From positions 3,154 through 67,153 of the forward strand of contig JBHPCZ010000003.1 of NCBI GenBank assembly GCA_042573625.1: DNA of 64,000 nucleotides, given 5' to 3'. Numbering within the stretch: the first letter of the stretch is position 1; each line of letters begins with the position of its first letter. This document shows positions 6,320 through 24,310 of the stretch, one piece after another. Source of the DNA: Thermodesulfobacteriota bacterium (GTDB lineage Bacteria; Desulfobacterota; Desulfobacteria; Desulfobacterales; UBA11574). The notes beneath the pieces are model-generated. The model had not been told where the DNA came from, searched no databases, and saw only the letters and a list, made by a program, of their open reading frames with translations. Position numbers and translations under genes: made by a program.

Positions 6320-7339
6320 TCAAATATCCAGATCAAACTGATACAGCGACAGATCAAAATGTGCTAAGCGTTGTTCTATTTCCTTAAGCACCTCATCATT
6401 GAAGTGTTCACGCCATTTGCCGGTACGGCTATCACGGATGTGTCTATGGGTGGGATCTTGATCGTCGCTCAGGCTGCGACCCATTTTACCTTCAATATTT
6501 TTCATTGAATCACGGCTGGCGAGCTGCAGAGCTTCATTAAAATATGTGCCGCTTTCCAGAGTGTCCGGATCATGCCCGAAGTATTTGAGCATCTTCCCAA
6601 AATGATCTTTAGGATTCCGCATTAGGGCTTCATAGGTTAACATAAAAATGTTGTCAGGAAATAGTGACTTAATGGCGTAAAAGGTGAAAAACTGTTTGAT
6701 GTAAGCATCAAGACCTGCAGCCAAAAAGTAGTCCTTGACAGAGGAGGAGGAAAAGGAAAATTCGTTGCCAAGAGCGTCAGTATAGTATTTAATATTGCGT
6801 TGATTTTGAGTATGGTGAAAAAATGAGACCGCCTGATCCAGTGGATTTCGGTAAATGTACACAATCCGACTCTGAGGATTATGGGATGGATCGACCATAA
6901 CTTCGTTGCTCTTGATAAGTCCGCCACCAATATCGAAGCCTGACTTCTCACCTCCCCAATCATTCAGGGCTTTCCAAGGTTTAAGATGCTTGCCTTTATA
7001 GCTATTAAAGGCCGGGCAATTGAAGTGTGTTAGAGTAAACGCATCAATACCTATTGTAGCTCCATAATCGTTAATTGAATTCGTTGGAAATGAGTTGGTT
7101 AAAATTTCTTCGACAATCTCTTTGCTATTTCGGCCGAGCAGCAACTGATCGTAAAAGTGAAAGAAGTATTTATTGTACACAGTTCCAGAGCGAGGCATGG
7201 TGCTTACTACTCCCACGCGGGCTCTTGGATGGATTTTCCTTTTCCTGAATTTCCCTGATATTAAAAAGCGCAATTTATAGATTATACTTCGAATCATGCT
7301 CAATTCCTTTACATTTCTTTTTAGTTTTGTTCGCTTCAT
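6320..7339 (-). CDS. PAPS-dependent sulfotransferase-domain protein
   Basis: MPRSGTVYNKYF matches the 5'-phosphosulfate-binding loop (PxxGT). IVYIYRNPLDQAVSFF matches the 3'-phosphate-binding RNPxDxxVS motif of sulfotransferases. The start may be the internal M15. Confidence 0.8.
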   Translation of the reverse strand: MKRTKLKRNVKELSMIRSIIYKLRFLISGKFRKRKIHPRARVGVVSTMPRSGTVYNKYFFHFYDQLLLGRNSKEIVEEILTNSFPTNSINDYGATIGIDAFTLTHFNCPAFNSYKGKHLKPWKALNDWGGEKSGFDIGGGLIKSNEVMVDPSHNPQSRIVYIYRNPLDQAVSFFHHTQNQRNIKYYTDALGNEFSFSSSSVKDYFLAAGLDAYIKQFFTFYAIKSLFPDNIFMLTYEALMRNPKDHFGKMLKYFGHDPDTLESGTYFNEALQLASRDSMKNIEGKMGRSLSDDQDPTHRHIRDSRTGKWREHFNDEVLKEIEQRLAHFDLSLYQFDLDI

Positions 7340-7344
7340 TCATA

Positions 7345-8079
7345 TCATAAAGCCAACCTGAAAAAAAAATCTTCAGCTGATGCATAGGATTCAGGTGTTC
7401 CAATATCGATAAATACGCCCTTACTTTGGAATCCATACAAGCCGTTGCCAACCAGACTCGGAAAAAAGTCCCGTTCCAGAGAAAAAGGCTTATCCAAAGG
7501 AATAGATTCAAAAAGGTCTCTATTGAAAATGTAAACTCCTGCATTGATCCATCCCGGACCACGGCTTGTACTTTTTTCATCAAATTTTACAATTTGTCCT
7601 TGCTTGTCAATCTCAACGCTTCCATATCGGCTGGTGTCTGAAACGTAAGTTAAAAGGAGGGATGCCTGTAAATCTTTATCAAAATACCAGTCAAGATAAT
7701 CTGACAGATTGCAATTTACATACGAGTCTCCATTGGTGACAAATACCGAATCGGTGGCGGCTAGCGGCAATCCAAAACGTAATGAACCGCCGGTACCAAG
7801 GGGTTCGTGTTCCTGAGAATACCGGATAATAATTTCACGATATTTGTCACCAAAAGCCTCTCTGATCTGTTTTCCTTTGTATCCGACACACAAAATCACA
7901 TGGCGGAACCCTGTTGAAATTAATTGATCTAGAAGATAAGAGAGGAAGGGGCGGCCTGCAACCGGAGCAAGTACTTTAGGCCGGTCAGGCAAAGCGTGTT
8001 GTAAGCGGGTGCCCAAACCGCCGGATAGTATCAAAGCAGTGAATTTTTTATCCAGGTTATGTGGAATAGAATATGACAT
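7345..8079 (-). CDS. hddC: sugar-1-phosphate nucleotidyltransferase, D-glycero-alpha-D-manno-heptose-1-phosphate guanylyltransferase-like
   Basis: ALILSGGLGTRL (GxGTR nucleotide-binding loop). ~240-aa size. Overlaps the upstream GHMP kinase gene, the usual HddA/HddC pairing. Confidence 0.7.
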   Translation of the reverse strand: MSYSIPHNLDKKFTALILSGGLGTRLQHALPDRPKVLAPVAGRPFLSYLLDQLISTGFRHVILCVGYKGKQIREAFGDKYREIIIRYSQEHEPLGTGGSLRFGLPLAATDSVFVTNGDSYVNCNLSDYLDWYFDKDLQASLLLTYVSDTSRYGSVEIDKQGQIVKFDEKSTSRGPGWINAGVYIFNRDLFESIPLDKPFSLERDFFPSLVGNGLYGFQSKGVFIDIGTPESYASAEDFFFRLAL

Positions 8080-9043
8080 GGGAGCCTATGTTTTCAAAAC
8101 GAAATGGCACATTTAATAGTCCTTTTAAACGTTTTTTTACTTTATCCTGTCTTCCTGGCGAGACATATAGTAAAATAAAACCGCCACCACCTGCTCCGCA
8201 AAGCTTTCCTCCCAGAGCACCTGCATTCATTGCTTCATCATAAATTCCATCAATTTCTTTTGTTGATATTTTTTCCGTTAGTCCTTTTTTCTGCATCCAT
8301 GATTCATGTAAGAGCCGCCCAAAATCATCCAAATTCTCATCCCTGCTATTTAATATTGACAGCGCTTCATCAACCCTTGTGTACATCTCTCCCAATTCTT
8401 TACTTATTTGAGGAGTTTTTCTTATTTGTTCTTTTGCGATATCTGAACCGATTCGAGATAAACCTGTAAAATATAGTAAAAACCGGGATTGTAATTCATC
8501 AAGCTTTTCAGAATTCAAAGTTACAGGCGTTACCCACAATTTTCTGGTGGTATCAAATTCAATTTTATTAAATCCACCAAATGCTGCTGCTACCTGATCT
8601 TGTGATCCAACATTTTCCTTTATCATTTCTTGTTCAACATGGATCGCGTCATATGCAAGCTGGCGTTTGGTTACCATCATTCCCTGTAAAGCATATAAAG
8701 CGTGAAGAAAGCCGACTGTGAATGCTGAACTTGAACCAATCCCTGATCGAGCAGGAATGTCACCGGTATGGGCCATTTCAATGTTTTTTTCAATATTCAA
8801 ATAGCGAAGGCACTCTCGAACAGAAGGGTGTTTCACATCATCAAGAAAATTTGTTGTTTCAAATTTTGAATACCGTATATGATATTTGAAGTCAAAAAAG
8901 GGTGGTAGTTCCCTACAGTTAATATAACAGTATTTATTTATAGTTGTACTAAGAACTGCTCCTCCATACTCATTGTAATATTTAGGATAATCTGTCCCCC
9001 CTCCAAAAAAAGAAATTCTATATGGTGTTCTTGTAATTATCAT
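8057..9043 (-). CDS. hddA: GHMP-family sugar kinase, D-glycero-alpha-D-manno-heptose-7-phosphate kinase-like
   Basis: N-terminus MIITRTPYRISFFGGGTDYP, GHMP motif DIPARSGIGSSSAF and C-terminal GGKLCGAGGGGF. Paired with the nucleotidyltransferase. Confidence 0.7.
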   Translation of the reverse strand: MIITRTPYRISFFGGGTDYPKYYNEYGGAVLSTTINKYCYINCRELPPFFDFKYHIRYSKFETTNFLDDVKHPSVRECLRYLNIEKNIEMAHTGDIPARSGIGSSSAFTVGFLHALYALQGMMVTKRQLAYDAIHVEQEMIKENVGSQDQVAAAFGGFNKIEFDTTRKLWVTPVTLNSEKLDELQSRFLLYFTGLSRIGSDIAKEQIRKTPQISKELGEMYTRVDEALSILNSRDENLDDFGRLLHESWMQKKGLTEKISTKEIDGIYDEAMNAGALGGKLCGAGGGGFILLYVSPGRQDKVKKRLKGLLNVPFRFENIGSHVIFYST

Positions 9044-9251: not shown

Positions 9252-10466
9252 TCATTGATGCTCTCTCTCATAAATGAAATTTCTCAGGCAACTGAGAAAC
9301 CAGTCTATATCTTTTTCATTAATTTCGTGATGAACACCGATATGGATGCCATTGGTGCCTATATATTCTGCATTCGGAAAATCACCGATTTTGTAGCCAA
9401 GAAATTCATAACCGCCGCATTGAGTGGGAATGGATGAGAAGAGCGACCGACTATCGATACCCTGGTGTTCCAAATAGAGCATCAATTCATCCCGTGTGAA
9501 TGGCGCCCCTTTCTTGACAAGAAACGGAAAGGCATGGGGACCGATCCGCTCGAATGATTCTTCTTTAAATGTCCATAGATATGTAGAAAATTCCTCGAAT
9601 TGTTCCATGATGGATCGCAGATTGTGATATCGTTTCCCAAGAATTTCGCCGTAAAGATCAAGATTTCCGAGGCCTAGTGCGGCCTCAAGTTCGTTCATTT
9701 TGCATGAATACCCGATACGCTCGAACTGAAAGCGGATATCCCCTCTTTCTTTATTACTGAAGCGCTTCTCGCAAAATCCTGACGTTGTATTCAATATGCA
9801 CTGTCTGCATTTGCAGGCCCTACCATGTGCCCTTAGAGAACGCAGGATCTCCGCAAATTGAGTGTTATCAGTTACGATGACCCCCCCCTCGCCCGTAGTA
9901 ATAATATGGGCCACGTAAAGGCTGAAAGCCCCCATGTCACCGAGAGTCCCGATATTCTTTCCTCGATATCTGGCCCCGTAAGCTTCGGCGGCATCTTCAA
10001 CCACAACCAGGTTATGTTTTTGGGCAATAGCGATAATCTGGTCCATTGCCGCAGGCTTACCCATAAGATGGGTTGGAATGATAGCGCGGGTGCGACCGGT
10101 GATGGCCGTTTCAATCATTTCCGGTTTGATATTCAATGTTTCCGGATCGATATCAACAAAAACCGGAGTGAAGCCTGCGTGAAGGATTGAATTCCCTGTG
10201 GCCACAAAGGATAAGGCAGGTGCGATCACCTCGTCGCCGCGCTGTCCTCCAATGTCATGTAAAACCGCCAGAGCCAGAGTATCAGCGTCCGTTCCGCTGC
10301 TAACAGCCACCGCCTCTTTCACCCCGACTATATCAGCGAATCGCTCCTCAAATTCACGGACATATTTTCCACCAGAAATGCGCCCCTTCTCCAAACAATC
10401 AAGGATCAGCTTCTTCGATTTGTCAGTAATTGTTATTGTTCCAAACGGAATTCTCATTTTCCGCAT
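9252..10466 (-). CDS. DegT/DnrJ/EryC1-family PLP/PMP enzyme, probably a sugar 3-dehydratase (RfbH-E1/ColD-like) rather than an aminotransferase
   Basis: DegT-family N-terminus (GKYVREFEERFADIVGVKEAVAVSSGTDA). The segment FSLYVAHIITTGEGG carries His where aminotransferases have the Schiff-base Lys. A Cys cluster GRACKCRQCILNTTSGFCEKRF follows, recalling the RfbH/E1 Fe-S region. Confidence 0.8.
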   Translation of the reverse strand: MRKMRIPFGTITITDKSKKLILDCLEKGRISGGKYVREFEERFADIVGVKEAVAVSSGTDADTLALAVLHDIGGQRGDEVIAPALSFVATGNSILHAGFTPVFVDIDPETLNIKPEMIETAITGRTRAIIPTHLMGKPAAMDQIIAIAQKHNLVVVEDAAEAYGARYRGKNIGTLGDMGAFSLYVAHIITTGEGGVIVTDNTQFAEILRSLRAHGRACKCRQCILNTTSGFCEKRFSNKERGDIRFQFERIGYSCKMNELEAALGLGNLDLYGEILGKRYHNLRSIMEQFEEFSTYLWTFKEESFERIGPHAFPFLVKKGAPFTRDELMLYLEHQGIDSRSLFSSIPTQCGGYEFLGYKIGDFPNAEYIGTNGIHIGVHHEINEKDIDWFLSCLRNFIYEREHQ

Positions 10467-10514: not shown

Positions 10515-11540
10515 TCAAGCAGTGTCAAGATTGTATGCCCTGTCCCCGCCTCCAGCGACAGCGGCAAATCTGCCGAGACACATCTCAACAAGCGTATCAA
10601 AGGAGTGGGTCGCTTCCGTGTTCTTCACGAAAACCCTCGGGATACCATAAAAGTCATAGCGGTTCTGTAGTTTTAACCGAGCTACCTCTATAAACCCCAT
10701 TTTCTTAAGCGTTTCATCATAGTCAACAGTGTGCATGCCTGGTTTAAGAATAGCACTGTCACGGATGTAGAAATAACCACCCCTGCGTAGGACACGCGAA
10801 CCTTCTGCCAGAAGCCACAATAAACCAGCGTAGTTGAGCTCGTTCAGAACGTAGCACGCTGTCAGCAAATCCATACTGCCTGCCTTTAAAAGCGGGAATC
10901 TCCAAGACGGAACATGCTTGATTGCGTATCTATTGTTATCAAGCTCAGCCTTGATCCGCTCAACCGGAAACTGGAAGTTCTCGCACTCGATAAGATCAAA
11001 ATATGCCCCTGGTTCTGGCGACAAAAAACGGAAATAGTGCCGCTGAACTCCGTAACTCATGGGACTGGCCTCAAGGGCATAGAATGAAGCATTAAGGAAC
11101 CTCAGGCTGTATAAAGCCGAACTCCCGAGACCGGGACCTATGTCAACATGATTCGGGTGTTCGGGCAAACTAGTGCAGTGACGTTTGATAAAACTGTAAT
11201 CCTGGGTTCGTGTTAGAGCTTGGCTCCGCACATTGTGGGCCCATGTTTTAGATTTAGCAAGAAAAGGAAAGAAATGGAGGAAGGCCTTCGCCATTTCTTT
11301 CTCGCAGCACTGCTTGACCTCCTCGTAATCGGGCACCATCATCTCCTGAGGCGTATCCTTCTGGACGTAGAACATAGAGAAATAGAATGCCACTGCATAC
11401 ATATTTTCAAGATCGAGTATATTTGCTTTGTGCATATTTTCAGTCCACTCAAATGGTGAACCGAGACGTGCCACCCTGTCGCCGAATATCCATTCTTGTT
11501 CAACCAGGGCTCTTTTAAGTGATTCTCTAACGTCCTGCAT
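10515..11540 (-). CDS. putative class-I SAM-dependent methyltransferase
   Basis: VDIGPGLGSSALYS (motif I-like) and LRRGGYFYIRDS (post-motif II). The start is placed at MQDVRESL (11540), which follows a GGGGGT Shine-Dalgarno and avoids overlap with the upstream FkbM gene. The longest ORF would start at 11639. Confidence 0.55.
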   Translation of the reverse strand: MQDVRESLKRALVEQEWIFGDRVARLGSPFEWTENMHKANILDLENMYAVAFYFSMFYVQKDTPQEMMVPDYEEVKQCCEKEMAKAFLHFFPFLAKSKTWAHNVRSQALTRTQDYSFIKRHCTSLPEHPNHVDIGPGLGSSALYSLRFLNASFYALEASPMSYGVQRHYFRFLSPEPGAYFDLIECENFQFPVERIKAELDNNRYAIKHVPSWRFPLLKAGSMDLLTACYVLNELNYAGLLWLLAEGSRVLRRGGYFYIRDSAILKPGMHTVDYDETLKKMGFIEVARLKLQNRYDFYGIPRVFVKNTEATHSFDTLVEMCLGRFAAVAGGGDRAYNLDTA

Positions 11541-11562
11541 TTTAAAGTGTACCCCCTTTTTT

Positions 11563-12618
11563 TTATCTTTGTCTATAGGGCGGCACATCGTCGTAGTCAT
11601 TGATATGTCGCCGCTCATCCACAAAACGCCCCACTTCAAAATTGCTACTCTCTGGAAAGGCTTTTACTCTATCAAACAAGTTTAATAATTTTTGATACGT
11701 CTCAGCTGGATCAAGATGAGCAACGCGATGAACGAGTTGTTCTATTCGCCTGGCTTCTTCCCCCTGTGCCCATGTTTTTAACGCCACTTCCAGGGCAAAA
11801 TCATAATAGCCGGTCAAGAGTGCACAGGCAAACAGGACATAATTACTCCGATCTGAGAGGGGCTTCTGGCGAACATCATTAGCCAGGGGGTCTTTAAAAA
11901 AGACCGCATCAGCCCAGAAAACGCGTTCTCTCCCTGCCTCAACCATTTTATTTAAACGTTTACACGATCTATAATGCAAACCCTGAAAGCCATAAAAATA
12001 AAAACCACGTTCGCGTAGAAACATCTCAATTTCTGAAAAAAGCTTCTGATCCGAATAAAAAGGAACGAAATTTACTTCCACAAGAATAGCGACTGTGCGC
12101 CCCCATAATGTCTTTTCAGCGCCATTTAAGACCTCCCATTCAACACCCTGTGCATCCAGTTTAATAAATTCGCCACAGGTGTCCACCAGATCCTTCCGTT
12201 CAAATAACACCTTGTCAAGTGTTGTGGTTCGAATGGAAGTAGTCCCTTTTCTCTGGAGACTATTTATATTATAGCGCTGAACGATGGCCGGGTTTTCAGG
12301 TCTAAGTGAGTCAGTTACCGGGGCGGAAAAACGGTGCAGGGTACCCGGTCCTTCTTGGCCAGCCAGCGCCAAAGGGAGTATCTGGATCACTGAATACGGT
12401 GATTGGCGGTGGCAACTATTTCTTAAACGTGTGCATTCGGCCTCGTCAAGATCAAAGGCCAGCACTGCCGTATTTTCAGCCAGCGGTTCGACGAGAGGGT
12501 GAATGCCCCCACGAGCACCAATGTCTATAAAGCCGAGCGGATTGGCGCGCAACTCGGAACCTACTGCACTACCCATAAAAAGCGGTTCAGAGGTTAAACA
12601 ATTAATGCCTTTTAACAT
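11563..12618 (-). CDS. FkbM-family methyltransferase
   Basis: FIDIGARGGIH (SAM motif) and FIKLDAQGVEWEVLNGA are hallmarks of Methyltransf_21/FkbM proteins. Confidence 0.8.
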   Translation of the reverse strand: MLKGINCLTSEPLFMGSAVGSELRANPLGFIDIGARGGIHPLVEPLAENTAVLAFDLDEAECTRLRNSCHRQSPYSVIQILPLALAGQEGPGTLHRFSAPVTDSLRPENPAIVQRYNINSLQRKGTTSIRTTTLDKVLFERKDLVDTCGEFIKLDAQGVEWEVLNGAEKTLWGRTVAILVEVNFVPFYSDQKLFSEIEMFLRERGFYFYGFQGLHYRSCKRLNKMVEAGRERVFWADAVFFKDPLANDVRQKPLSDRSNYVLFACALLTGYYDFALEVALKTWAQGEEARRIEQLVHRVAHLDPAETYQKLLNLFDRVKAFPESSNFEVGRFVDERRHINDYDDVPPYRQR

Positions 12619-12672
12619 CTAAAATACCTCCTGATCAAGTGTCGCCTTTGTCTGGAAAGATGGAGTGTGCTT

Positions 12673-14154
12673 CTACTCACTTAAAATCTTCCTTTTCAGC
12701 TTGATTTTAGTCATGCCTTGGATGTGTTCTCTGGATTCTCTTCCGAACTTTTTTTCTATTAAATTCAAATAATCCTGATTGGTAAAATACGTATTAAACA
12801 CATGATCGCGGAATCTAAGAATCTCCGCAGATGACAATGACTCAGTGGGGAGCGGGAGAAAATCGTATCCCTGTGAGGCGTAACCCAACCACGATTCAGG
12901 CAAAGGAGTATTATTTTTGAGTGCTTTACGGTAAAGGTCGGAACCGGGAATTGCCATGGTGCAAAAAAAGCTGGGGAAAGCGCACTTTAGTTCCAAAGCA
13001 AATTCGAGATTTTCCTGCATTGTTTCGAGAGTGTCGCCGGGAAGTCCGAACATGAAGTTGGCACAAAGGTCTATTCCAGCACCATGTACTTTCTTTACAA
13101 CTCTCCGGATGATGTCCTTGGTGAAATTTCCTTTTTTGCTACGCTTGATTATTTCTACATTGCAGGACTCGATTCCGAGCTTAAACCAATTGAACCCGGC
13201 CTTTTTAAGAAAGGTAAGTTCTTCCATAGACGTTTTGTCTAAAATATCCACTCTTGCAAAGGAAGCGATATTGAGGTCATATTTGCGTTTCAGAATTTCT
13301 TTCGCAATAGGGTGGTAATGACTGTGCTTGAAGATAAACAGTTCGTCATGCAGATTAATATTCTTAACGTTGTATTTGTTCACCAGCAGATCAAATTGAC
13401 CTATCACCCATTCTGGATTCCAGGTTCTTAATTTGTGTTCTCCATAGGTTGCATGAATCGCACAGAAGTTGCATCGGAAAGGACAGCCGAGACTGGTGAA
13501 CAAAGACACAAACCTATTTCTCGAATTCAAATCACCCAAACACATCCAGTTAAATGCCCTATACCTGTTCTCATTCATCGGCAGCAGATCCCAGGCTACC
13601 TCGGGCAACTCCCGGGTGAGATCGGCAATATTTTCTGCACGACGGTTGCTTTTAATTTCTCCGTTCTCTTCCCACCATAGGCCACGAACCTCGCGGTAAT
13701 TTTTCCCGGAGAGCAGATCCTTCAGTGAATAAAAGCCTTCTCCTTGGATTACGAAGTCACAGGCTTCTTCCAGGAGGGTTCTCTCTGGCAATGCGGAAGG
13801 ATGCCATCCTGTAAGGATAAGGTTTTTTTCGGGAATCTTTTCTTTAATCTTGCGGCATAATTCACCTACACCGACCATTATGGGGGTAGAAACATTTGCC
13901 TGCTGACTGTAACAGATAATCGCAATGTACTTTGGGGCATCCCGCTGAATCCGTTCAACGGTTTCATCATAATCGATGTTTTCCGCGTTTGCGTCTAACA
14001 CTCCAACACTGAAACCCTCTTTGCGCAAATATCCGGCAGTAAGAATTGCCCAAAAAGGCGTATCAACTGCTGAATAATCCTTACTCAATTCCTGATAGAT
14101 ACGTTTCCGGGAACCGCCTGGGTTAATCAATAGAATGTCAGGGTTCAAAGTCAC
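12673..14154 (-). CDS. B12-binding-domain radical SAM enzyme (class B)
   Basis: N-terminal Rossmann-like B12 domain (ILLINPG..., AIICYSQQA). CxxxCxxC cluster motif SLGCPFRCNFCAI. 493 aa. Confidence 0.9.
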   Translation of the reverse strand: MTLNPDILLINPGGSRKRIYQELSKDYSAVDTPFWAILTAGYLRKEGFSVGVLDANAENIDYDETVERIQRDAPKYIAIICYSQQANVSTPIMVGVGELCRKIKEKIPEKNLILTGWHPSALPERTLLEEACDFVIQGEGFYSLKDLLSGKNYREVRGLWWEENGEIKSNRRAENIADLTRELPEVAWDLLPMNENRYRAFNWMCLGDLNSRNRFVSLFTSLGCPFRCNFCAIHATYGEHKLRTWNPEWVIGQFDLLVNKYNVKNINLHDELFIFKHSHYHPIAKEILKRKYDLNIASFARVDILDKTSMEELTFLKKAGFNWFKLGIESCNVEIIKRSKKGNFTKDIIRRVVKKVHGAGIDLCANFMFGLPGDTLETMQENLEFALELKCAFPSFFCTMAIPGSDLYRKALKNNTPLPESWLGYASQGYDFLPLPTESLSSAEILRFRDHVFNTYFTNQDYLNLIEKKFGRESREHIQGMTKIKLKRKILSE

Positions 14155-15070
14155 TCCTTGTGCTCATTTGCAGTAGAAAACTCTTCAGGGAATCTCCGTC
14201 AATGCCTATTCTGCGTCTCAGTTCTTCACGTCCGGGATTGCCGAGTATAAATGCTTCTGGTGGGCCTCTCCGAACTATTTTCAAATGGCTATTTGTTTCT
14301 GATTTCCAAGCACAGATTTCATGATAAAGCCCTCCCTGTGGAATACTCTCCTCAGTGATAATTGCAATGGCATATCTGTCTGCAATTTCGGCAAAGCACT
14401 CTCTGTCCACAGGTTTTACTGTGTGAAAATGATAAAGCGCTGGATTTATTTTGCTCCCTTCTAATTCCCGCATCTTCGGGTAAATGTCGGAAACTATGTC
14501 ACCCGAGGTGAGTACCGCCACCTTCTCGCCATCGATCAATTTCCTGGCCTTCCCCAAGCTAATTGAAGAATCGTGTCCAACTTCCGATTCGCCAAATTTT
14601 CCAACGCGCAGATATGATGGCCCCTTAAGCTTCAGCATCTGCGGCATTAATTCCCGGAGTTCATCAGGGCCGCCGGGGGTAACAATGCTCATGTTTGGTA
14701 GAGCTCCCATCAGAACCAGATCATCGGCAGCATGGTGAGTAACCCCAGCCTGGGCATACGTGAAGCCGCCGCCAGCCCCGACGACCATTACCGGCAAATT
14801 ATGGTAGGCTATCCCGAAGCGAATCTGTTCGAACGGTCTGGCCGTAACAAACGACCCGATGGAATAGGCAATCGGCCGCCAGCCCTCCAGAGCCAAACCC
14901 ACGGCGGTGTTTATCAACTGCGCTTCGGCGACGCCGACATTCACATATCTTGTTGGAAATTGTACGATGAATTCATCGAAGACTTGGAACCCCAGATCCC
15001 CCGTCAGAAAAATTATTCTCGGATTTTCTTTCGCTACATTGACTAGCATGTCTGAAAATGCTTTTCTCAT
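14138..15070 (-). CDS. transketolase, C-terminal (pyrimidine-binding) subunit
   Basis: MRKAFSDMLVNVAKEN..., FLTGDLG, VNVGVAEAQLI, AADDLVLM. The start at 15070 follows a GAGGT SD. The longest ORF would start at 15112. Confidence 0.85.
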   Translation of the reverse strand: MRKAFSDMLVNVAKENPRIIFLTGDLGFQVFDEFIVQFPTRYVNVGVAEAQLINTAVGLALEGWRPIAYSIGSFVTARPFEQIRFGIAYHNLPVMVVGAGGGFTYAQAGVTHHAADDLVLMGALPNMSIVTPGGPDELRELMPQMLKLKGPSYLRVGKFGESEVGHDSSISLGKARKLIDGEKVAVLTSGDIVSDIYPKMRELEGSKINPALYHFHTVKPVDRECFAEIADRYAIAIITEESIPQGGLYHEICAWKSETNSHLKIVRRGPPEAFILGNPGREELRRRIGIDGDSLKSFLLQMSTRSDFEP

Positions 15071-15083
15071 TGAAGCAACCTCA

Positions 15084-15932
15084 TTAATAAAAGGGTTCCT
15101 CTTCGATTTCAACGAGAGCCCTGTCTAAGTCGTGCTTGGACGGGCTTCGATAGAACCAAACCTGATCTTTTTCCATAAAGCTGACTCCGGCTCCGCTGAC
15201 GGTATTTGCGATTATCACAGAAGGTTTTTCCGGTGAAAAAGGAAATTTATTAAGTGCGTCAACGAGAACACTAATATTATTGCCGTTTACAGAGATTGCT
15301 TCCCATCCGAAACTGCGAAACTTCTCTTCGAGCGAGGTAAAGCCCATGAGTGCATCGCTCCGGCCAACAGCCTGTGAACCGTTGCAGTCAACAATAGCCA
15401 AAACGTTGGTAAGTTTCTGCGCTGCCGCGAACATGGAGGCTTCCCAGACGCTTCCTTCGTTACATTCGCCGTCACTCATGAGCACAACCGCCCTGCTTGT
15501 CAAGTTCTGGTCAAGTCGTAGACCATAAAGAATGCCCCCGGCGATGCCTAAACCATGCCCAAGACTGCCGGAAGAAATTTCCAGATGCGGCAGCGCATAT
15601 TTACAGGGATGATTCGGCAACAACGAATCGGTTTGCGCATATTCCTTGAGTACCTCCCGGGGAATGATACTAAATGCGGCCATGGTAGCGTAAAGCGCCG
15701 AGCACCCGTGGCCTTTGCTCATGATAAAACGGTCCCGTTCCAATTTACAACTCTTTCCACCATCACAGTAATTGAGGAATCCTCCGAACAAAACCGTCAG
15801 TATATCAACACAGCTCAATGCGGAACTTACATGAGTCTCCCCGGCGTTAAATGCCATTTTTACGCATGTAGCGCGAATCCGCCCAGCCATCTTTTCCAGT
15901 TCCTTTGTTTCAAACATTGCCATTTCCCTCAT
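15084..15932 (-). CDS. transketolase, N-terminal (ThDP-binding) subunit
   Basis: SKGHGCSALYA, GSLGHGLGIAGG and the ThDP motif VLMSDGECNEGSVWEA. Confidence 0.9.
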   Translation of the reverse strand: MREMAMFETKELEKMAGRIRATCVKMAFNAGETHVSSALSCVDILTVLFGGFLNYCDGGKSCKLERDRFIMSKGHGCSALYATMAAFSIIPREVLKEYAQTDSLLPNHPCKYALPHLEISSGSLGHGLGIAGGILYGLRLDQNLTSRAVVLMSDGECNEGSVWEASMFAAAQKLTNVLAIVDCNGSQAVGRSDALMGFTSLEEKFRSFGWEAISVNGNNISVLVDALNKFPFSPEKPSVIIANTVSGAGVSFMEKDQVWFYRSPSKHDLDRALVEIEEEPFY

Positions 15933-15933
15933 T

Positions 15934-17235
15934 TCAAAAATTTATGTGCCTTTCCCTCAGGTAAGTCTGAACGGTTTCGTGGTTTTCGACAATCTCATCC
16001 ATACTCATGCTTTCACCGAAAGGCGTAACTTTATCATACTCAAAGAAGTGGGGGGCCTTTTCATCATCGTCGAAACGGCCAAAAGCGAATAGGTATTTAT
16101 CGAACGGCACGTTTGGATTTATCTTCATTCCAAAGCGTTGTGGATTATTCCATATTTCTGAGCCCGGAATGGGACACAAGATTGAAAGTGATACGTTCGA
16201 GGGCTGGACCTCCTCAATGAAATCGATCGTCTGCTGCGCAATGTTCCGCGGTTCCCCTGGAAGCCCCAAAATCAGAAGCAGTTTGATGTCGAGCCCTTCC
16301 TGCCGTAGAACCCTGAAGTATTCTTTTGCTTTCACGAGATCAATTTTTTTGTTCATGATGTCAAGCGCGCGTTGAGAAACACTCTCGATTGCCACGGCGA
16401 TCTCGACACAACCGGTTTCCTTTGCCAGTCTTACTGTATCGGAATGAACCCCGTTAGCCCTGGACTGTCCCCTCCATAAGATGTTCGCCTTTCCGATCGC
16501 TTCGAGCATACTGCGGGCACCTTTCCTGTTGGTATGAATGCCTTGGTCATCTTTTAAAAGGATTGATTGGACTTGATATTCGCGCTTGAGATATTCTATC
16601 TCTTTCACGATCCATTCTGGTGAGCGTACCCGGATGGGACCTTTGTACTGGTTTGAGCAGAAGTGGCAGTCGAATGGGCAGCCTCTCGAGAATAGCACAG
16701 AGGTCCCAAGCAGGTCGTAATACTTCTGGCTCAGCATGCCGACATCCACAATAGCAGATTTTGGCAGATACTTCCGGAGCGGAAACGGGTAATTGTTGAT
16801 GTCAATTGTGCCGGTCTGACGGTATATTTTCTTGAGTTTCTTATTGAAAATGTCTTGTATCATCTGTTTGATGATCTCTTCACCTTCCCCTATACAGATC
16901 GCATCAAAGGTATTTAGACTCTCCTCGGGAAAGATGTTCGCATGCGGGCCACCGGCAAGGTGAAGGGCTTTAGGATAGAAGCGCCTAACCGCCGCAATGA
17001 TTCTCTGGATCTCGGCAATCTCGGGGGTGGTCACGTAGTGAAGGTAGACTTCCAGTTCCGGGATGTGATAGATCATCGAATCTTCATCAATCCCCCGCAG
17101 GTCGGTGTAGCTTAGACTCAGCCGATCGCCGAATTCCTCTTCCAATATTGTTAAGAGGTATAATGGGCCGAGCGGATCGATCCTAAACGGTTTCTCGTTC
17201 TGTTTCCCACTGGTGTTTAGGAATCCAACTCTCAT
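15934..17235 (-). CDS. B12-binding-domain radical SAM enzyme (class B), second paralog
   Basis: N-terminal B12-like domain followed by the SRGCPFDCHFCSN CxxxCxxC motif. 433 aa. Its stop lies 1 nt before the transketolase-N start. Confidence 0.9.
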   Translation of the reverse strand: MRVGFLNTSGKQNEKPFRIDPLGPLYLLTILEEEFGDRLSLSYTDLRGIDEDSMIYHIPELEVYLHYVTTPEIAEIQRIIAAVRRFYPKALHLAGGPHANIFPEESLNTFDAICIGEGEEIIKQMIQDIFNKKLKKIYRQTGTIDINNYPFPLRKYLPKSAIVDVGMLSQKYYDLLGTSVLFSRGCPFDCHFCSNQYKGPIRVRSPEWIVKEIEYLKREYQVQSILLKDDQGIHTNRKGARSMLEAIGKANILWRGQSRANGVHSDTVRLAKETGCVEIAVAIESVSQRALDIMNKKIDLVKAKEYFRVLRQEGLDIKLLLILGLPGEPRNIAQQTIDFIEEVQPSNVSLSILCPIPGSEIWNNPQRFGMKINPNVPFDKYLFAFGRFDDDEKAPHFFEYDKVTPFGESMSMDEIVENHETVQTYLRERHINF

Positions 17236-17285
17236 GAAGGCCTCCTTCAGAAATTAAGTTTCCGTTCCCGCATAACGGCCTGAAG

Positions 17286-17530
17286 CTACATATAGATGTT
17301 AATTATCTGATCGGGAGCCATCGCACGACCCCATGGCGTCTCGCGATCATACTCGAAGACCAGGTGCGGTTTCTCGCTCTCCTCAAAGCGCCCAAGTGCA
17401 GACTGATACTTGTCGAAACCAACGCCGGATGGTCCTTTGCCAAGTAATCATCAACTCCCGTGACCGCTCGCCTATCAGACCAGGTATATTGATCAAAGAA
17501 TATCGAATTTCGTTCATCCGCTTCGATGTC
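17286..17530 (-). pseudogene. 3' remnant of a radical-SAM paralog (frameshifted fragment)
   Basis: The minus-strand translation GVGFDKYQSALGRFEESEKPHLVFEYDRETPWGRAMAPDQIINIYM* aligns with the C-terminus of the adjacent rSAM (NVPFDKYLFAFGRFDDDEKAPHFFEYDKVTPFGESMSMDEIVEN). Upstream pieces (DIEADERNSIFF / INIPG) lie in other frames. There is no start codon and no N-terminal domains. Confidence 0.6.
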
Positions 17531-18115
17531 CTATATGATCGATCTATCAATAAATGTTTTCAGCAGAAAACGTGATATTATTGCGGCAGGAGAGCTCAAA
17601 TATATTTCGCCACTGACCAGCCTCTGTGCAGCGTCTGTAAAAGATATTGCTTCAACGGAGACGATCTCATTGTCATGTCTTGAGCGGGAAACGAACTCAG
17701 ACTGACTCACATCCACACTGAAAACGCTCAGAAGGACTGGTATTCTGCCAGGCAGCTCGGAGACAGGCAGCTCAGGGACAAAGCGACGGGGGTCAGTTAT
17801 ACCTATACCTGTTTCTTCCATGAACTCCCGCATGGCAGCCGTCCTCGGGGTTTCTCCAACCTGCGAATCACCAGCTGGGAGTTCTAAGGGACAGTCATCA
17901 ATCAATGGGCGCTTCACACGAATCATGACGATGAAATCTCTCTCCAAGACAGGAAGTATCACAACCTGAGATCGCTTATATTCCATAGTGTAGTAGGTTC
18001 CTCTCGCCATCACCTGAAACCAAGGGTTTTCGTGCGCGAGGGAGACCGGTTGTAATTCAGGACACAACAGTGGAGAGGGGCTGTCTGGATCGCATGGAAG
18101 CACTTTTCTTGTCAT
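17531..18115 (-). CDS. Nudix hydrolase (nucleotide-sugar hydrolase role inferred from context)
   Basis: Nudix box GDSQVGETPRTAAMREFMEETG (Gx5Ex7REUxEExGU). The start overlaps the upstream dehydratase stop as ATGA. Confidence 0.85.
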   Translation of the reverse strand: MTRKVLPCDPDSPSPLLCPELQPVSLAHENPWFQVMARGTYYTMEYKRSQVVILPVLERDFIVMIRVKRPLIDDCPLELPAGDSQVGETPRTAAMREFMEETGIGITDPRRFVPELPVSELPGRIPVLLSVFSVDVSQSEFVSRSRHDNEIVSVEAISFTDAAQRLVSGEIYLSSPAAIISRFLLKTFIDRSII

Positions 18116-19128
18116 CTGGACAAAACCTTCCTTCCAAACCTGATTCTATCACGCCAATATTCAAGCAAATCTTGCATAGTTTTTTCAAATGGTATTCTTG
18201 GCTCCCATCCGGTATGTTCCTTAAATTTTGAGGTGTCTGGAACCTGAAGGTCGGCATCTAGAGCGCGTAGCCGGGATTTCTCCGTTTCTACCTTGATGTC
18301 ATTAATGGAGGAGAGAGACAGCAGATAATCCAGCATTTCTCCGACAGTGCAAGAAAATGCCCCACCGATGTTATAGTACTCCCCAGGGATGGGTTTGATC
18401 GTTACCAGCATGAAATATGCCTTCACGGCATCACGTACATCTGACCAAGTGCGCAGAGAATTCAAATTGCCGGTTTTAACAATTGGTGGAATTAATTTTT
18501 GTTCGATCATTGCGATCTGCTTTGCAAAACTGGATTCCGCAAAGACATCGCCCCGCCTGGGACCCGTATGAGTAAACATCCGGGTCACAACAACCCGTTG
18601 ACCGTAAGCCTCAGCATGGAATCGCCCTAGAAGGTCGGTACCAATCTTGGAGATGGCATAAGGAGACGCCGGGTGGAATGAACATTCCTCATGAATCGGA
18701 AGCTGGTCACGCGGCACACGGCCGAACACTTCCGAAGACGAGCACACGTGAATAACTGGATCAATACCTTTGCATTTTCTCAAGGCTTCGAGCAGCTTTT
18801 CCGTGCCCTGAACATTTGTGTCCAGAGTTTGTATCGGAGAGGTGAAACTCGTTTCAGGATAGCTCTGGGCTGCAAGGTGAAAAACATAATCAGGGCTGCT
18901 TTCCTCCACCGCATTTTGCAAAGAAATATAGTCGTTGAGATCTCCATTAATAAAATACAGCCTATCTTTCTTGTTAGCCCTGTCCAACAGATGCTCAACA
19001 TTATCCAGCGGACTCCGCCAGCGGCACATGCCATAGATATCCCAATCGGTCTTTTCCAATAAAAAGTCAGACAGATGGGAACCGACCATGCCGGTTATGC
19101 CTGTTATAAGTGCTCTGTTCTTTCTCAT
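18112..19128 (-). CDS. NAD(P)-dependent SDR epimerase/dehydratase, GDP-sugar 4,6-dehydratase (Gmd)-like
   Basis: ALITGITGMVGSHLSDFLL (GxxGxxG Rossmann loop), SSSEVFG and the YAISK catalytic YxxxK. 338 aa. Confidence 0.8.
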   Translation of the reverse strand: MRKNRALITGITGMVGSHLSDFLLEKTDWDIYGMCRWRSPLDNVEHLLDRANKKDRLYFINGDLNDYISLQNAVEESSPDYVFHLAAQSYPETSFTSPIQTLDTNVQGTEKLLEALRKCKGIDPVIHVCSSSEVFGRVPRDQLPIHEECSFHPASPYAISKIGTDLLGRFHAEAYGQRVVVTRMFTHTGPRRGDVFAESSFAKQIAMIEQKLIPPIVKTGNLNSLRTWSDVRDAVKAYFMLVTIKPIPGEYYNIGGAFSCTVGEMLDYLLSLSSINDIKVETEKSRLRALDADLQVPDTSKFKEHTGWEPRIPFEKTMQDLLEYWRDRIRFGRKVLSR

Positions 19129-19327: not shown

Positions 19328-19410
19328 TACATCCATAAAATCAAATGGTTTTAAAGCAGATGCCCACGGGCGGAAGCCCGTGGGCATCTGCTAATTTTGA
19401 TAGGGATGTA
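19328..19410. repeat. long imperfect palindrome with a perfect 15-bp GC-rich core stem (19356-19370 / 19377-19391)
   Basis: gcagatgcccacggg-cggaag-cccgtgggcatctgc read directly. The flanks tacatcc...atcaaa and tttgat...ggatgta extend the symmetry. T/A-rich runs on both sides make it a possible bidirectional terminator or a REP-like element. Confidence 0.7.
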
Positions 19411-23337: not shown

Positions 23338-24310
23338 AGCCACAAAGGCACGAAGACACTAAAATTATAATATAATTCTTTGGGTAAAGTCCGACAATCC
23401 GGACCTAATTTACTACCTTATATACTTCTTTAACAATTTTATTAAGTAGTTTTCTTGCTCTTTTAAATCTAGATGACGGTAGTTATATCGCCAGACATAT
23501 TCTCCGAGATACAAATGCAATCGTGACTGCCTGATACCACCCTTTGCAGCCAGTTTACGTTTCAGGTAACCCCAAAAGCCTTCAAGGCCGTTGATGTGGT
23601 TTCCGTTAGTTACATAGTTATCTCTACTATGCTTAACCAAGCGATGTACATAACCTTTAGCAGCAATGCCAGTGTATCCTCGCCAGGTATCTGATAAAAC
23701 AGTCGAGCCTTTTTTGACCTGTTTGAAAATCCTTGGCTGTAGCTGTTTGGCTTCAACCCCGTCTATAAAATCGGCCCAGACCTTGCCTTTGCGGCAAAGA
23801 ATGCCGAAAACAGCCTGTTTATTCGTGCCTCTGCCGCGTTTGGCTTTTGGCAAATTACGTTTAACAGAAAGGCGCTTGTTTTTCCATTGGCCACCGAGAT
23901 AGGTTTCATCCACCTCAACGGTGCCTTCGAAGATTTCAGGAAGATCCTGAGTCATAGCAACCCTCAACAGAGTCAAAACTTTCAGTAACATGTACTTTGA
24001 TATGTCAACTCTGCTGAGGATGATATTGGTTGAATGATCAAGCAAAAACTCCTGTATAACGGTTCTTAATTTGGCCGGGGAAATACTAATTTTCCTTCTA
24101 TGATCACTAAATGTTTTCCTACATTTAGCACATCGGAAACGGCCATCTTTAAGTGACCATAATTTGTTATTTGAGCATTCTGGGCAAATCCGCTTCATAC
24201 CTGAATCTTTTAGCATTACAGGTACGAATTTTCAAACTTTACCCTTTATTTTTATGCCATTTTTAATAAAAAGTTTATAATTCATACCCCTTCTTTGTGT
24301 CTTAGTGGCT
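23338..24310 (-). mobile_element. IS1595-family insertion sequence (~0.97 kb) with imperfect terminal inverted repeats
   Basis: A single transposase ORF flanked by agccacaaaggcacgaagacac...aattataa (23338-23370) and its approximate reverse complement ttataatt...ctttgtgtcttagtggct (24275-24310). The outer 19 nt match at 16 positions by eye. No target-site duplication was recognised. Confidence 0.6.
23413..24216 (-). CDS. IS1595-family transposase (ISXO2-like DDE domain with N-terminal zinc ribbon)
   Basis: CPECSNNKLWSLKDGRFRCAKCRKTFS zinc ribbon, VEVDETYLGG and GKVWADFIDG...TVLSDTWRGY are typical of IS1595 transposases. The start may be M7 (24198). Confidence 0.85.
   Translation of the reverse strand: MLKDSGMKRICPECSNNKLWSLKDGRFRCAKCRKTFSDHRRKISISPAKLRTVIQEFLLDHSTNIILSRVDISKYMLLKVLTLLRVAMTQDLPEIFEGTVEVDETYLGGQWKNKRLSVKRNLPKAKRGRGTNKQAVFGILCRKGKVWADFIDGVEAKQLQPRIFKQVKKGSTVLSDTWRGYTGIAAKGYVHRLVKHSRDNYVTNGNHINGLEGFWGYLKRKLAAKGGIRQSRLHLYLGEYVWRYNYRHLDLKEQENYLIKLLKKYIR

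Follow-up and report, generated by a model that had tools for sequence, protein, structure and literature searches.

Organization of the locus

A 64,000-nucleotide stretch of DNA from a member of the Thermodesulfobacteriota (contig JBHPCZ010000003.1; hereafter the window, numbered from its first letter) carries on its minus strand a compact array of four genes, in which the two halves of a split, thiamine diphosphate (ThDP)-dependent transketolase-fold enzyme, tktN and tktC, are flanked upstream by rSAM-2 and downstream by rSAM-1, both of which code for radical S-adenosylmethionine (SAM) enzymes of the B12 type (Table 1). Comparison with related loci reveals this array to be one lineage's version of a very widespread cassette, distinguished by the extra rSAM-2 and by the decayed remains of a third radical SAM gene. 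Analysis of the active-site residues and of the gene neighborhoods further suggests that the transketolase-fold enzyme has acquired a new substrate pocket and might branch a sugar nucleotide destined for the cell surface.

The four genes, their order and their tight coupling had been proposed in a sequence-only reading of the stretch, and are borne out by the open reading frame (ORF) listing, the translations, the Pfam and NCBIfam matches and inspection of the junctions. A single nucleotide separates the stop codon of rSAM-2 (TGA, 15936-15934) from the ATG at 15932, which is the first in tktN. The 1-nt gap described earlier holds for this ATG but not for the one at 15917, which is likely to be the true start and leaves a gap of 16 nt, since GAGGGA stands 7 nt ahead of it and the homologues are annotated with a length of 277 aa. 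The remaining two junctions are as had been described. The tktN stop (TAA, 15086-15084) is followed by a 13-nt spacer, in which a GAGG can be read as a Shine-Dalgarno (SD) element, and then by the ATG of tktC at 15070, while the tktC stop (TGA, 14140-14138) overlaps rSAM-1 by 17 nt if the latter begins at the GTG at 14154; an alternative TTG start at 14148 has better SD spacing and reduces the overlap to 11 nt. A scan of the minus strand from 12673 to 17235 found no terminator-like site. The promoter and terminator scan counts were the same as in shuffled sequences, and the only strong feature was a perfect hairpin with a 17-bp stem and 12 G-C pairs, situated within the 578 nt that precede the dehydratase gene; it probably delimits the transcription unit on its upstream side or serves as a bidirectional terminator.

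The array forms the middle of a co-directional minus-strand run of ~12 kb (about 19128 to 7345). To judge from its gene content, the run lies inside the lipopolysaccharide (LPS) locus of a Gram-negative bacterium, as the window also encodes LpxK, WaaA, LptF/G, MsbA, LpxB, BamA and three heptosyltransferases; a sulfotransferase, methyltransferases and glycosyltransferases are likewise encoded in it.

Table 1. Features of the window, with the four-gene array first, followed by the other members of the run and by additional elements (scores in bits; SDR, short-chain dehydrogenase/reductase; NTase, nucleotidyltransferase)
Feature	Position	Strand	Description	Evidence or remark
rSAM-2	17235-15934	minus	Radical SAM enzyme, 433 aa	Motif CPFDCHFC (ORF listing, translation)
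tktN	15932-15084	minus	ThDP-binding half of split transketolase-fold enzyme	Transketolase_N 99 (Pfam)
tktC	15070-14138	minus	Pyrimidine-binding and C-terminal half of the same	Transket_pyr 92, Transketolase_C 44 (Pfam)
rSAM-1	14154-12673	minus	Radical SAM enzyme, 493 aa	Motif CPFRCNFC (ORF listing, translation)
Dehydratase gene	18112..19128	minus	GDP-mannose-4,6-dehydratase (GMD)-like SDR	GDP_Man_Dehyd 236; NCBIfam gmd 155 (cut-off 415)
Nudix gene	17531..18115	minus	Nudix hydrolase	NUDIX 40.9 (Pfam); overlaps dehydratase gene by 4 nt
Third radical SAM gene	17250..17429	minus	Dead remnant	Last 60 codons, in-frame stop
Methyltransferase gene	11563..12618	minus	FkbM-family SAM methyltransferase	Methyltransf_21 53, TIGR01444 50
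Conserved gene	10515..11639	minus	Conserved protein of unknown function, 374-aa ORF	No Pfam or NCBIfam match
DegT gene	9252..10466	minus	DegT-family protein, E1/RfbH type	DegT_DnrJ_EryC1 317; RfbH 264 (cut-off 423)
Kinase gene	8057..9043	minus	HddA-like GHMP anomeric sugar kinase	GHMP_kinases_N and _C; HddA 163 (cut-off 600)
NTase gene	7345..8079	minus	HddC-like sugar-1-phosphate NTase, mannose-1-P guanylyltransferase-like	NTP_transferase 101; HddC 164 (cut-off 300)
Sulfotransferase gene	6320-7339	minus	Sulfotransferase	Adjoins the cassette
Hairpin	19355-19392		Perfect inverted repeat	
Transposase gene	23413-24216	minus	IS1595/ISXO2-type transposase	DDE_Tnp_IS1595 105
Acyltransferase gene and neighbor	298-1845 and 2046-3209	minus	DltB-like MBOAT O-acyltransferase beside an unannotated 387-aa protein	Edge of the glycan locus

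Active-site residues of the split transketolase

The best match of tktN in the Protein Data Bank (PDB) is 6YAK, the N-chain of the split transketolase of Carboxydothermus hydrogenoformans (E 3e-54), and the best matches of tktC are 6YAJ (E 3e-37) followed by DXS. In transketolases the substrate phosphate is held by His461, Arg520 and Ser385 (E. coli numbering, used throughout), Asp469 reads the C2 hydroxyl of the acceptor and the equivalent of His261 binds the terminal hydroxyl of the donor. We aligned the 42 split transketolases from the related cassettes described below with 6YAJ/6YAK and with the human transketolase. The reference split transketolase shares with tktN and tktC the fold, the division into two chains and the ThDP/Mg-binding and cofactor-activating residues. 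The Asp, Glu and Asn residues involved (motif GDG...N) are invariant in all 42 cassette proteins, those of the window included, as are Glu411, His473 and, again with the window included, Arg358. The residues that contact the substrate in canonical transketolases, in contrast, have been replaced. His461 is a Gly in 42/42; Arg520 is kept in only two and is a Lys in the window; Ser385 has become a Gly in 35, the window among them; and Asp469 is retained in 11 and is an Ala in the window. At the position of His261, 38 of the proteins have a His and four, including that of the window, a Phe. Arg358, Ser385, His461, Asp469, Arg520 and His261 are all kept in 6YAJ/6YAK. The NCBIfam models for transketolase are matched at 224 and 132 bits, short of the cut-off of 488.

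Since the cofactor residues are invariant and those for the sugar phosphate and the acceptor are lost, the split transketolase is almost certainly not the pentose-phosphate enzyme of the organism; it would instead be a ThDP carboligase with a remodelled substrate pocket, encoded in an LPS context as opposed to the pentose-phosphate context of the canonical enzyme. The concern, raised in the sequence-only reading, that the two halves might be the only central-metabolism transketolase of the organism can accordingly be set aside, as they lack the canonical substrate-binding residues. A related proposal would be that they form a supply enzyme, which makes sedoheptulose-7-phosphate or another ketose phosphate as an input for the heptose-nucleotide pathway, with the radical SAM enzymes acting independently of it. 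This could account for the HddA- and HddC-like enzymes in the locus and GmhA and GmhB in sister loci, and it would sit well with the closest solved structure being a genuine split transketolase and with the universal retention of the phosphate ligand Arg358. We nevertheless consider it very unlikely, given the Gly at His461 in every sequence and the loss of Arg520 in 40, Ser385 in 35 and Asp469 in 31 of the 42, the coupling of the transketolase genes in translation to the radical SAM genes and not to the kinase gene, and their replacement elsewhere by pairs of pyruvate dehydrogenase (PDH) E1-like or mini-E1 subunits, which cannot make sedoheptulose-7-phosphate.

Conservation and composition of the cassette

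Three sets of rSAM-1 loci were compared, a first set (n = 85) and two sets seeded with beta- and alpha-proteobacterial rSAM-1 homologues (n = 76 and n = 79), pooled to n = 233; the genome scans each kept the best 80 or fewer loci, and all ORFs of the 85 first-set loci were clustered without prior assumptions. The rSAM-1 family comprises >4900 database clusters at E <= 1e-20 and is found at a minimum of 579 loci in species-representative genomes. Its phyletic pattern spans Desulfobacterota, Elusimicrobia, Planctomycetes (including Brocadia), Nitrospirae, Omnitrophota, Verrucomicrobia, cyanobacteria, Proteobacteria (Legionellales, Azospirillum and Herbaspirillum), Chlamydiae (Simkania), Patescibacteria and DPANN archaea, with homologues also in Coxiellaceae and in a 1-Mb Coxiella-like endosymbiont. 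The module tktN-tktC-rSAM-1, together with the genes for the kinase, the NTase and the RfbH-like protein, is syntenic in Elusimicrobia, and the same gene set is present in Geobacteraceae, in one 3.8-Mb genome and on plasmid pDMC1 of S. magneticus.

Clustering of the 85 first-set loci recovered as neighbors of rSAM-1 the HddA-like kinase (61 loci), the DegT protein (56), the HddC-like NTase (52), an SDR of ~313 aa (49), a second SDR resembling GDP-fucose synthase (GFS; 38), the GMD-like dehydratase (36), tktN and tktC (42 each, with either half in 44), PDH-E1 beta-like (26) and alpha-like (24) subunits, an RmlC-like cupin (12) and the Nudix protein (10). The NTase recurs in 43 of the 76 and 41 of the 79 loci of the other sets, in which a frequent gene order is rSAM-kinase-E1a-E1b-DegT-NTase-GmhA-SDR; GmhA itself occurs in 12-15/85, 15/76 and 7/79 loci and GmhB in 10 to about 13/85, 6/76 and 10/79. 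In the pooled loci the kinase is the most constant neighbor of rSAM-1 (172/233, directly adjacent in 81), and a ThDP enzyme lies in the flanks of 177, directly adjacent in 51; of the 138 loci in which each flank extends for 6 kb or more, 119 have a ThDP enzyme. Thus, the conserved unit consists of rSAM-1, a ThDP enzyme, the HddA-like kinase, the NTase, a DegT dehydratase of the His type (see below) and SDRs.

These figures uphold the earlier proposal that the array belongs to a functional unit of a glycan locus, as the adjacency of transketolase and rSAM-1 and the associated gene set recur across phyla. They also show that ThDP enzymes and B12-type radical SAM enzymes are found together repeatedly and not by accident. 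They do not uphold the four-gene sandwich as the conserved core. The co-occurrence check shows the transketolase-rSAM-1 pair to be conserved but rSAM-2 to be no part of the conserved unit: rSAM-2 orthologues flank the transketolase in two close relatives only, namely locus L116, where the identities are 95% (rSAM-1), 94% (rSAM-2), 93% (tktN) and 88% (tktC), and locus L114, where rSAM-2 is 83% identical and another radical SAM gene stands between it and tktN. None of the 85 first-set rSAM-1 loci has an rSAM-2 orthologue, and the extra radical SAM enzymes encoded there are at most 28% identical to it. A chance adjacency in a variable O-antigen region has practically no likelihood. O-antigen loci are mosaic, G+C varies across the window and an IS1595 transposase gene is nearby, but the pair of transketolase and rSAM-1 occurs with its gene set in hundreds of genomes across phyla, in conserved order and with overlapping starts and stops, and chance adjacency is thereby ruled out by the co-occurrence data.

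The ThDP enzyme of the cassette takes one of three nearly exclusive forms: the split transketolase, a PDH-E1-like alpha/beta pair, and a mini-E1 pair, composed of an alpha-like subunit of ~200 aa and a beta-like subunit of ~190 aa without the usual C-terminal domain. These are found, in this order, in 44, 28 and 5 loci of the first set, 15, 41 and 3 of the second and 7, 38 and 2 of the third. The split transketolase and the E1 pair co-occur in none of the 85 loci and two ThDP forms are combined in two loci only. The E1 proteins score 278 and 291 bits against PDH E1 models. Mini-E1 pairs were seen at positions 12585-13737 of locus L100 and also in L052, L054, L056, L058 and L067, that is, in some bacterial and DPANN archaeal cassettes. 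As the split transketolase is replaced elsewhere by PDH-E1-like pairs, the sequence relationships suggest that the donor might be a pyruvate-derived C2 unit, and the interchangeability of the two enzyme types would point to a role in acyl branching of a sugar nucleotide and not to a classical ketol transfer between sugar phosphates.

A search of plasmids recovered seven annotated carriers, in all of which the products are named generically ('radical SAM protein', 'kinase') with no curated function, and literature searches found no paper on the cassette.

Affinities of the radical SAM enzymes

Both radical SAM enzymes match the Radical_SAM model of Pfam (rSAM-1 63 bits, rSAM-2 64 bits) and possess the CxxxCxxC core preceded by a B12-type N-terminal domain, as had been described from their translations. 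The B12-binding domain (PF02310) scores 44.7 bits in rSAM-1, above the gathering score of 32.1, and 31.5 bits in rSAM-2, just below it, where the domain is short and weak. The term paralogs used earlier overstates their relationship: a pairwise alignment gives 22% identity over 337 residues, which places them in different subfamilies and makes a recent paralogy untenable. The rSAM-2 family is small (299 matches at E <= 1e-30), and its distant relatives include one beside a transketolase and rSAM-1 in Elusimicrobia, two with PDH-E1-like pairs and one that is the sole radical SAM enzyme of an Omnitrophota locus; rSAM-2 thus appears to be a lineage-specific accessory tailoring enzyme. Up to four different B12-type radical SAM enzymes are encoded in a single related locus. 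Turnover of such genes is evident in the window itself, where the remnant between the Nudix gene and rSAM-2 is 87% identical (tblastn) to residues 390-449 of a 449-aa radical SAM enzyme of L116. In that locus the gene is intact, lies immediately upstream of the rSAM-2 orthologue and codes for a protein 51% identical to rSAM-2, making it a tandem paralog. The remnant, as read from its sequence, shows a recent gain and loss of radical SAM genes at this locus.

The two enzymes were placed relative to the class-B enzymes by means of curated family-model scores, which serve as a proxy for a tree. The best curated families for rSAM-1 are HpnJ (160 bits over nearly the full length, cut-off 578) and BchE (111 bits). 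Several models for P- and C-methylases come next, at 50-90 bits. For both enzymes PhpK scores 76-84 bits (cut-off 600) and Sden_1168 72-90 (cut-off 575); HpnR reaches 50-65 (cut-off 650), MgmA 46-54 (cut-off 360) and TsrM 38 (cut-off 500), while the AprD4 model NF033070 gives 57 bits with rSAM-1 and 64 with rSAM-2 (cut-off 500). The best PDB sequence match of both is nonetheless AprD4 (rSAM-1, E 3.5e-10; rSAM-2, 6FD2, E 2.3e-13), at 18-19% identity, with the methylase MgmA as the next. An AlphaFold model of rSAM-1 (pLDDT 76, pTM 0.83) shows a Rossmann plus TIM architecture, and its best fold match is again AprD4 (TM 0.67/0.73), followed by MgmA, OxsB, TsrM, CysS and TokK. Class-B methylase identity is consequently unproven for either enzyme, the methylase models being far below their cut-offs and AprD4 being the closest solved relative. 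AprD4 binds no cobalamin, and HpnJ and BchE are listed under 'other transformations' among the B12-type radical SAM enzymes (PMC12931638). The context of the window gives no further link to HpnJ, as it has no hpn genes and the surroundings are LPS and sugar-nucleotide genes.

The predicted acceptor sugar and branching pathway

Alignment of 62 cassette DegT proteins revealed a His at the position of the catalytic Lys in 53, and 20, including that of the window, have in addition the four conserved Cys known from the E1 type, while the others are more like ColD. This exchange of Lys for His is the hallmark of the 3-dehydratases ColD and E1/RfbH, which depend on pyridoxamine phosphate. The GMD-like SDR of the window retains the motifs SSSEVFG and YAISK. 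The run accordingly brings together NTase, 4,6-dehydratase-like and 3-dehydratase-like genes, the gene set for a deoxy-keto acceptor. In most sister loci rSAM-1 is found together with SDRs of the ~313-aa and GFS-like types, whereas the run of the window has the GMD-like SDR alone; the GFS-like SDR of the sister loci scores 412 bits against the GDP-fucose synthase model (cut-off 500). Taken with the HddA- and HddC-like enzymes, GmhA and GmhB of sister loci and the GMD-like dehydratase, this SDR suggests that the scaffold is a nucleoside diphosphate (NDP)-heptose, probably GDP-heptose.

The reading we prefer, and to which we assign a probability of about 0.5, is that the cassette encodes a yersiniose-like branched-deoxysugar pathway on a GDP-heptose scaffold, in which the split transketolase would add a C2 unit and the radical SAM enzymes would tailor unactivated carbons. 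The pathway may be envisaged as follows. The HddA-like kinase and the HddC-like NTase, by homology and by the presence of GmhA/GmhB in sister loci, would supply the NDP-heptose, probably GDP-heptose. The GMD-like enzyme, whose homology and catalytic motifs point to 4,6-dehydration, would then yield a 4-keto-6-deoxy intermediate, from which the His-type, Cys-rich DegT protein could remove the 3-hydroxyl in the manner of E1 and ColD. The resulting 3,6-dideoxy-4-keto sugar nucleotide would correspond to the acceptor of YerE in yersiniose synthesis (PMC9306805). As a ThDP carboligase, the split transketolase might next place a C2 unit, either acetyl from pyruvate or hydroxyacetyl, on the carbonyl, analogous to YerE in yersiniose synthesis and to the E1 pairs of the AviB1/AviB2 type in antibiotic sugars. 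rSAM-1 would modify an unactivated carbon of the sugar and rSAM-2 would do likewise; cobalamin-dependent C-methylation is our guess for this step, which is the least certain of all. Methylation by the FkbM-type enzyme, sulfation and transfer to the LPS would presumably complete the product.

Several observations weigh against this reconstruction. The matches of the kinase, the NTase, the dehydratase and the 3-dehydratase all fall well short of the curated equivalog cut-offs, so that the scaffold sugar and its nucleotide can only be inferred. Neither GmhA nor GmhB is encoded in the 64-kb window, though they may be encoded elsewhere in the genome, given that the organism has heptosyltransferases. 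Also missing from the window are an E3-type reductase, which an E1-type dehydratase would call for, and any obvious ketoreductase to act on the branch. In many of the sister cassettes no 4,6-dehydratase can be recognized, and the sole SDR of such cassettes has T-N-S where the dehydratases have T-D/S-E. At some loci, for example in Azospirillum lipoferum 4B, rSAM-1 and the kinase have no ThDP enzyme in their flanks, so that rSAM-1 cannot strictly require the product of such an enzyme. No family-level match supports methylation, the nearest solved relative being the cobalamin-free dehydratase AprD4. Finally, the rSAM-1 family extends into reduced genomes (DPANN archaea, Patescibacteria, Simkania and the Coxiella-like endosymbiont), and lineages with such genomes rarely make or use B12.

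A rival reading within the same pathway frame is that the radical SAM enzymes are AprD4- or DesII-like radical dehydratases and not methylases, possibly free of cobalamin, with rSAM-1 converting a vicinal diol of the sugar nucleotide, for which the 6,7-diol of the heptose side chain is a candidate, into a deoxy-carbonyl compound. The ThDP enzyme would attack the carbonyl so formed, and the His-type DegT protein and an SDR would deoxygenate and reduce the alpha-hydroxyketone, giving a C2 chain extension without branching of the ring. We regard this as possible though on the unlikely side. Cassettes without a recognizable 4,6-dehydratase imply that the carbonyl must come from something else, and most proteobacterial cassettes consist of just rSAM-1, the kinase, E1ab, the His-type DegT protein, the NTase, GmhA and one SDR of non-dehydratase type, so that every gene would receive a task without a 4,6-dehydratase. 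To this may be added the sequence and fold matches to AprD4, which itself acts on a sugar and is partnered by an SDR reductase, the occurrence of the family in reduced genomes unlikely to have B12, and the general knowledge that aldehydes are the natural acceptors of transketolases and E1 enzymes. Against it, the AprD4 model is matched at 57 and 64 bits relative to a cut-off of 500, with HpnJ, BchE and several methylase models scoring higher; the B12-binding domain of rSAM-1 is above the Pfam threshold; a classical 4,6-dehydratase and a 3-dehydratase already supply a carbonyl in the window; serial methylation is a better explanation than serial dehydration for the loci in which three or four different B12-type radical SAM enzymes occur; and an enzyme of the ColD/E1 type acting on an exocyclic ketol is without precedent. 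Within the frame of the branched-deoxysugar pathway, methylation is only slightly favored over AprD4-like dehydration; the arguments for it are precedent, a B12 domain in rSAM-1 that reaches significance in Pfam and the up to four radical SAM enzymes per locus.

The affinity of rSAM-1 to HpnJ and BchE raises another alternative, namely that it forms a C-C bond, closing a carbocycle between the side chain of the heptose and the C2 branch added by the ThDP enzyme; the product would be a carbocyclic sugar of C9-C10, similar in type to caryose or bradyrhizose. Caryose is a 4,8-cyclo-3,9-dideoxy-nonose, and a C7 heptose plus C2, with a 3-deoxy position and a terminal methyl, gives a C9 sugar that fits this structure. 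The two best curated matches are non-methylating B12-type radical SAM enzymes that form or contract rings, and the genes for bradyrhizose are unassigned, as the paper on this sugar offers no gene functions beyond a dTDP-glucose dehydratase cluster (PMC4743980). Even so, cyclization is quite unlikely. The HpnJ score (160) is far from the cut-off of 578, rSAM-1 occurs also without a ThDP enzyme, no cassette carrier has a known carbocyclic sugar, and neither Bradyrhizobium nor Trinickia/Burkholderia caryophylli is named among the best 80 or fewer loci of any of the four genome scans. The Azospirillum-seeded scan, in particular, recovered Rhodospirillales, Acidobacteriota and others among its best 80 or fewer loci, with no Bradyrhizobium or Trinickia.

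Combining elements of the two foregoing alternatives, rSAM-1 might be a radical dehydratase or cyclase, possibly cobalamin-free, that together with the ThDP enzyme turns GDP-heptose into a chain-extended or carbocyclic C9-C10 sugar. In such a scheme rSAM-1 would make a carbonyl from the 6,7-diol, or a ring, the ThDP enzyme would add the C2 unit, and the ColD/E1-like enzyme would deoxygenate the ketol. We deem this unlikely. If correct, it would constitute an unrecognized and widespread route to higher sugars, which might explain orphan sugars such as caryose or bradyrhizose.

Comparison with known systems

Three ThDP superfamilies have been linked to the branching of sugars, the YerE-like enzymes, the aKADH2 E1 pairs and the split transketolases (PMC9306805; PMC4753412; PMC12247030). 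The branched-deoxysugar pathway favored here shares its logic of NTase, 4,6-dehydratase, His-type 3-dehydratase and ThDP enzyme with the systems for yersiniose (DdhA-D, YerE/YerF), erwiniose, caryophyllose and gastriose (ErwE, MygE), and both the yersiniose-type product and that of the window are bound for the LPS O-antigen. They differ in several respects. The ThDP enzyme of the yersiniose type belongs to the YerE/acetolactate-synthase (decarboxylase) family, whereas that of the cassette has the split transketolase fold or is PDH-E1-like. The yersiniose sugar derives from CDP-glucose but the cassette sugar probably from GDP-heptose, with no equivalent of E3 or YerF in the window. Lastly, the cassette includes as an integral part between one and four radical SAM enzymes of the B12 type, and none is found in yersiniose-type clusters. 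The idea that the cassette produces erwiniose, through a heptose with a radical SAM-derived C-methyl and a C2 branch, was rejected, because YerE-like enzymes with longer 2-oxoacid donors explain both erwiniose and caryophyllose (PMC9306805).

The E1 pairs AviB1/AviB2, Pau11/Pau12 and KbDH-alpha/beta form C-4 acetyl branches on antibiotic deoxysugars with pyruvate as the C2 donor (PMC4753412; PMC12247030). The AviB1/AviB2-type pairs are of the same general type as the E1 alpha/beta pairs that take the place of the split transketolase in sister cassettes; the known examples come from clusters for secondary metabolites in actinomycetes, where no radical SAM enzyme accompanies them. The cassettes, in contrast, lie in LPS or other glycan loci of Gram-negative bacteria and DPANN archaea, and that of the window employs the transketolase fold. 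Split-gene transketolases have been proposed to transfer a (hydroxy)acetyl group to a keto sugar in the miharamycin and amipurimycin clusters and 13 Streptomyces clusters (PMC12247030, section 2.3). Compared by description only, those enzymes all stem from Streptomycetes and serve nucleoside-antibiotic pathways, whereas the cassette transketolases are far more widespread and tied to rSAM-1 and heptose genes.

Both radical SAM enzymes share with the sugar diol dehydratase AprD4, which acts with AprD3 in the C3' deoxygenation of apramycin, and with the B12-dependent enzymes MgmA/QCMT, OxsB, TsrM, CysS and TokK, a Rossmann-like N-terminal domain joined to the radical SAM core. The substrate of AprD4 is an aminoglycoside, while that of the enzymes described here is presumably a sugar nucleotide, and rSAM-1 alone has a Pfam-significant B12 domain. 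The GDP-D-glycero-alpha-D-manno-heptose pathway and its tailoring branches in Campylobacter have in common with the cassettes the kinase, NTase, GmhA, GmhB, GMD-, RmlC- and GFS-like families, all of which are below the equivalog cut-offs in the cassettes. The known heptose-tailoring pathways, with their DmhA-like dehydratase, cupin epimerases and GFS-like reductases, differ in having no ThDP enzyme, 3-dehydratase or radical SAM enzyme. Papers on the LPS of C. burnetii mention a second heptose-nucleotide enzyme (CBU0678) and GmhA (CBU0674) and no radical SAM enzyme, transketolase or ThDP enzyme.

An observation of possible interest concerns the anammox bacteria. The S-layer O-glycan of Kuenenia stuttgartiensis contains an unidentified residue of 174.09 Da (PMC5088730). 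A branched dideoxy sugar of the yersiniose type, C8H14O4, also has a mass of 174.09 Da, and the Brocadia loci L079 and L108 carry an rSAM-1/E1 cassette.

Functional implications

In terms of the known systems, the window would thus represent a pathway of a familiar kind that is set apart by four features: the transketolase fold in an LPS locus, the heptose scaffold, the enormous phyletic spread and the near-constant presence of a B12-type radical SAM enzyme. If the proposed pathway is correct, the transketolase superfamily would be the third ThDP superfamily to branch sugar nucleotides in cell-surface glycans, a role so far suspected for it only in a few Streptomyces antibiotic clusters. A cassette present in hundreds of species, with carriers such as Legionellales, Azospirillum, anammox bacteria, Nitrospira, Elusimicrobia, candidate-phyla bacteria and DPANN archaea, would imply a common, undescribed surface sugar or family of sugars and, with it, radical SAM chemistry of a new kind that acts on a sugar nucleotide. 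It would also follow that, when the metabolism of uncultured organisms is reconstructed, these 'transketolase subunits' should be left out of the pentose-phosphate pathway. Cultured carriers, namely Azospirillum lipoferum 4B, A. halopraeferens, Solidesulfovibrio magneticus RS-1 and Herbaspirillum lusitanum, would allow direct tests.

Additional genes of the run and its surroundings

The remaining genes of the run show a similar recurrence. The Nudix gene is found again beside the dehydratase and rSAM-1 genes in related loci, and its homologue in L114 has an NDPSase_N domain. FkbM genes likewise recur in related loci, and the FkbM enzyme of the window is likely to be the O-methylase of the sugar, as far as its family membership indicates. 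Homologues of the conserved protein of unknown function, with 54-57% identity, are encoded within the cassettes of L037 and L038; its true start is probably further downstream, since the listed TTG overlaps the FkbM gene by 77 nt. The NTase gene overlaps the kinase gene by 23 nt.

Genes related to sulfation were seen beside the cassette on several occasions. In addition to the sulfotransferase gene of the window, CysN/C- and CysD-like sulfate-activation genes lie beside it in L100 (5983-8705), and an adenylyl-sulfate kinase and a sulfotransferase do so in the plasmid locus of A. lipoferum (L117). Judged from these genes, the product sugar or the glycan may be sulfated.

By its G+C content the locus looks mosaic. 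The fraction is 0.35-0.40 in the first 10 kb of the window, which holds the methyltransferase, glycosyltransferase, sulfotransferase, kinase and NTase genes, and 0.45-0.48 across the radical SAM and transketolase genes. The IS1595/ISXO2-type transposase gene is inserted between an LPS glycosyltransferase gene and a heptosyltransferase gene. The MBOAT gene at the edge of the glycan locus suggests, from its relationship to DltB, a possible O-acylation of a surface polymer.

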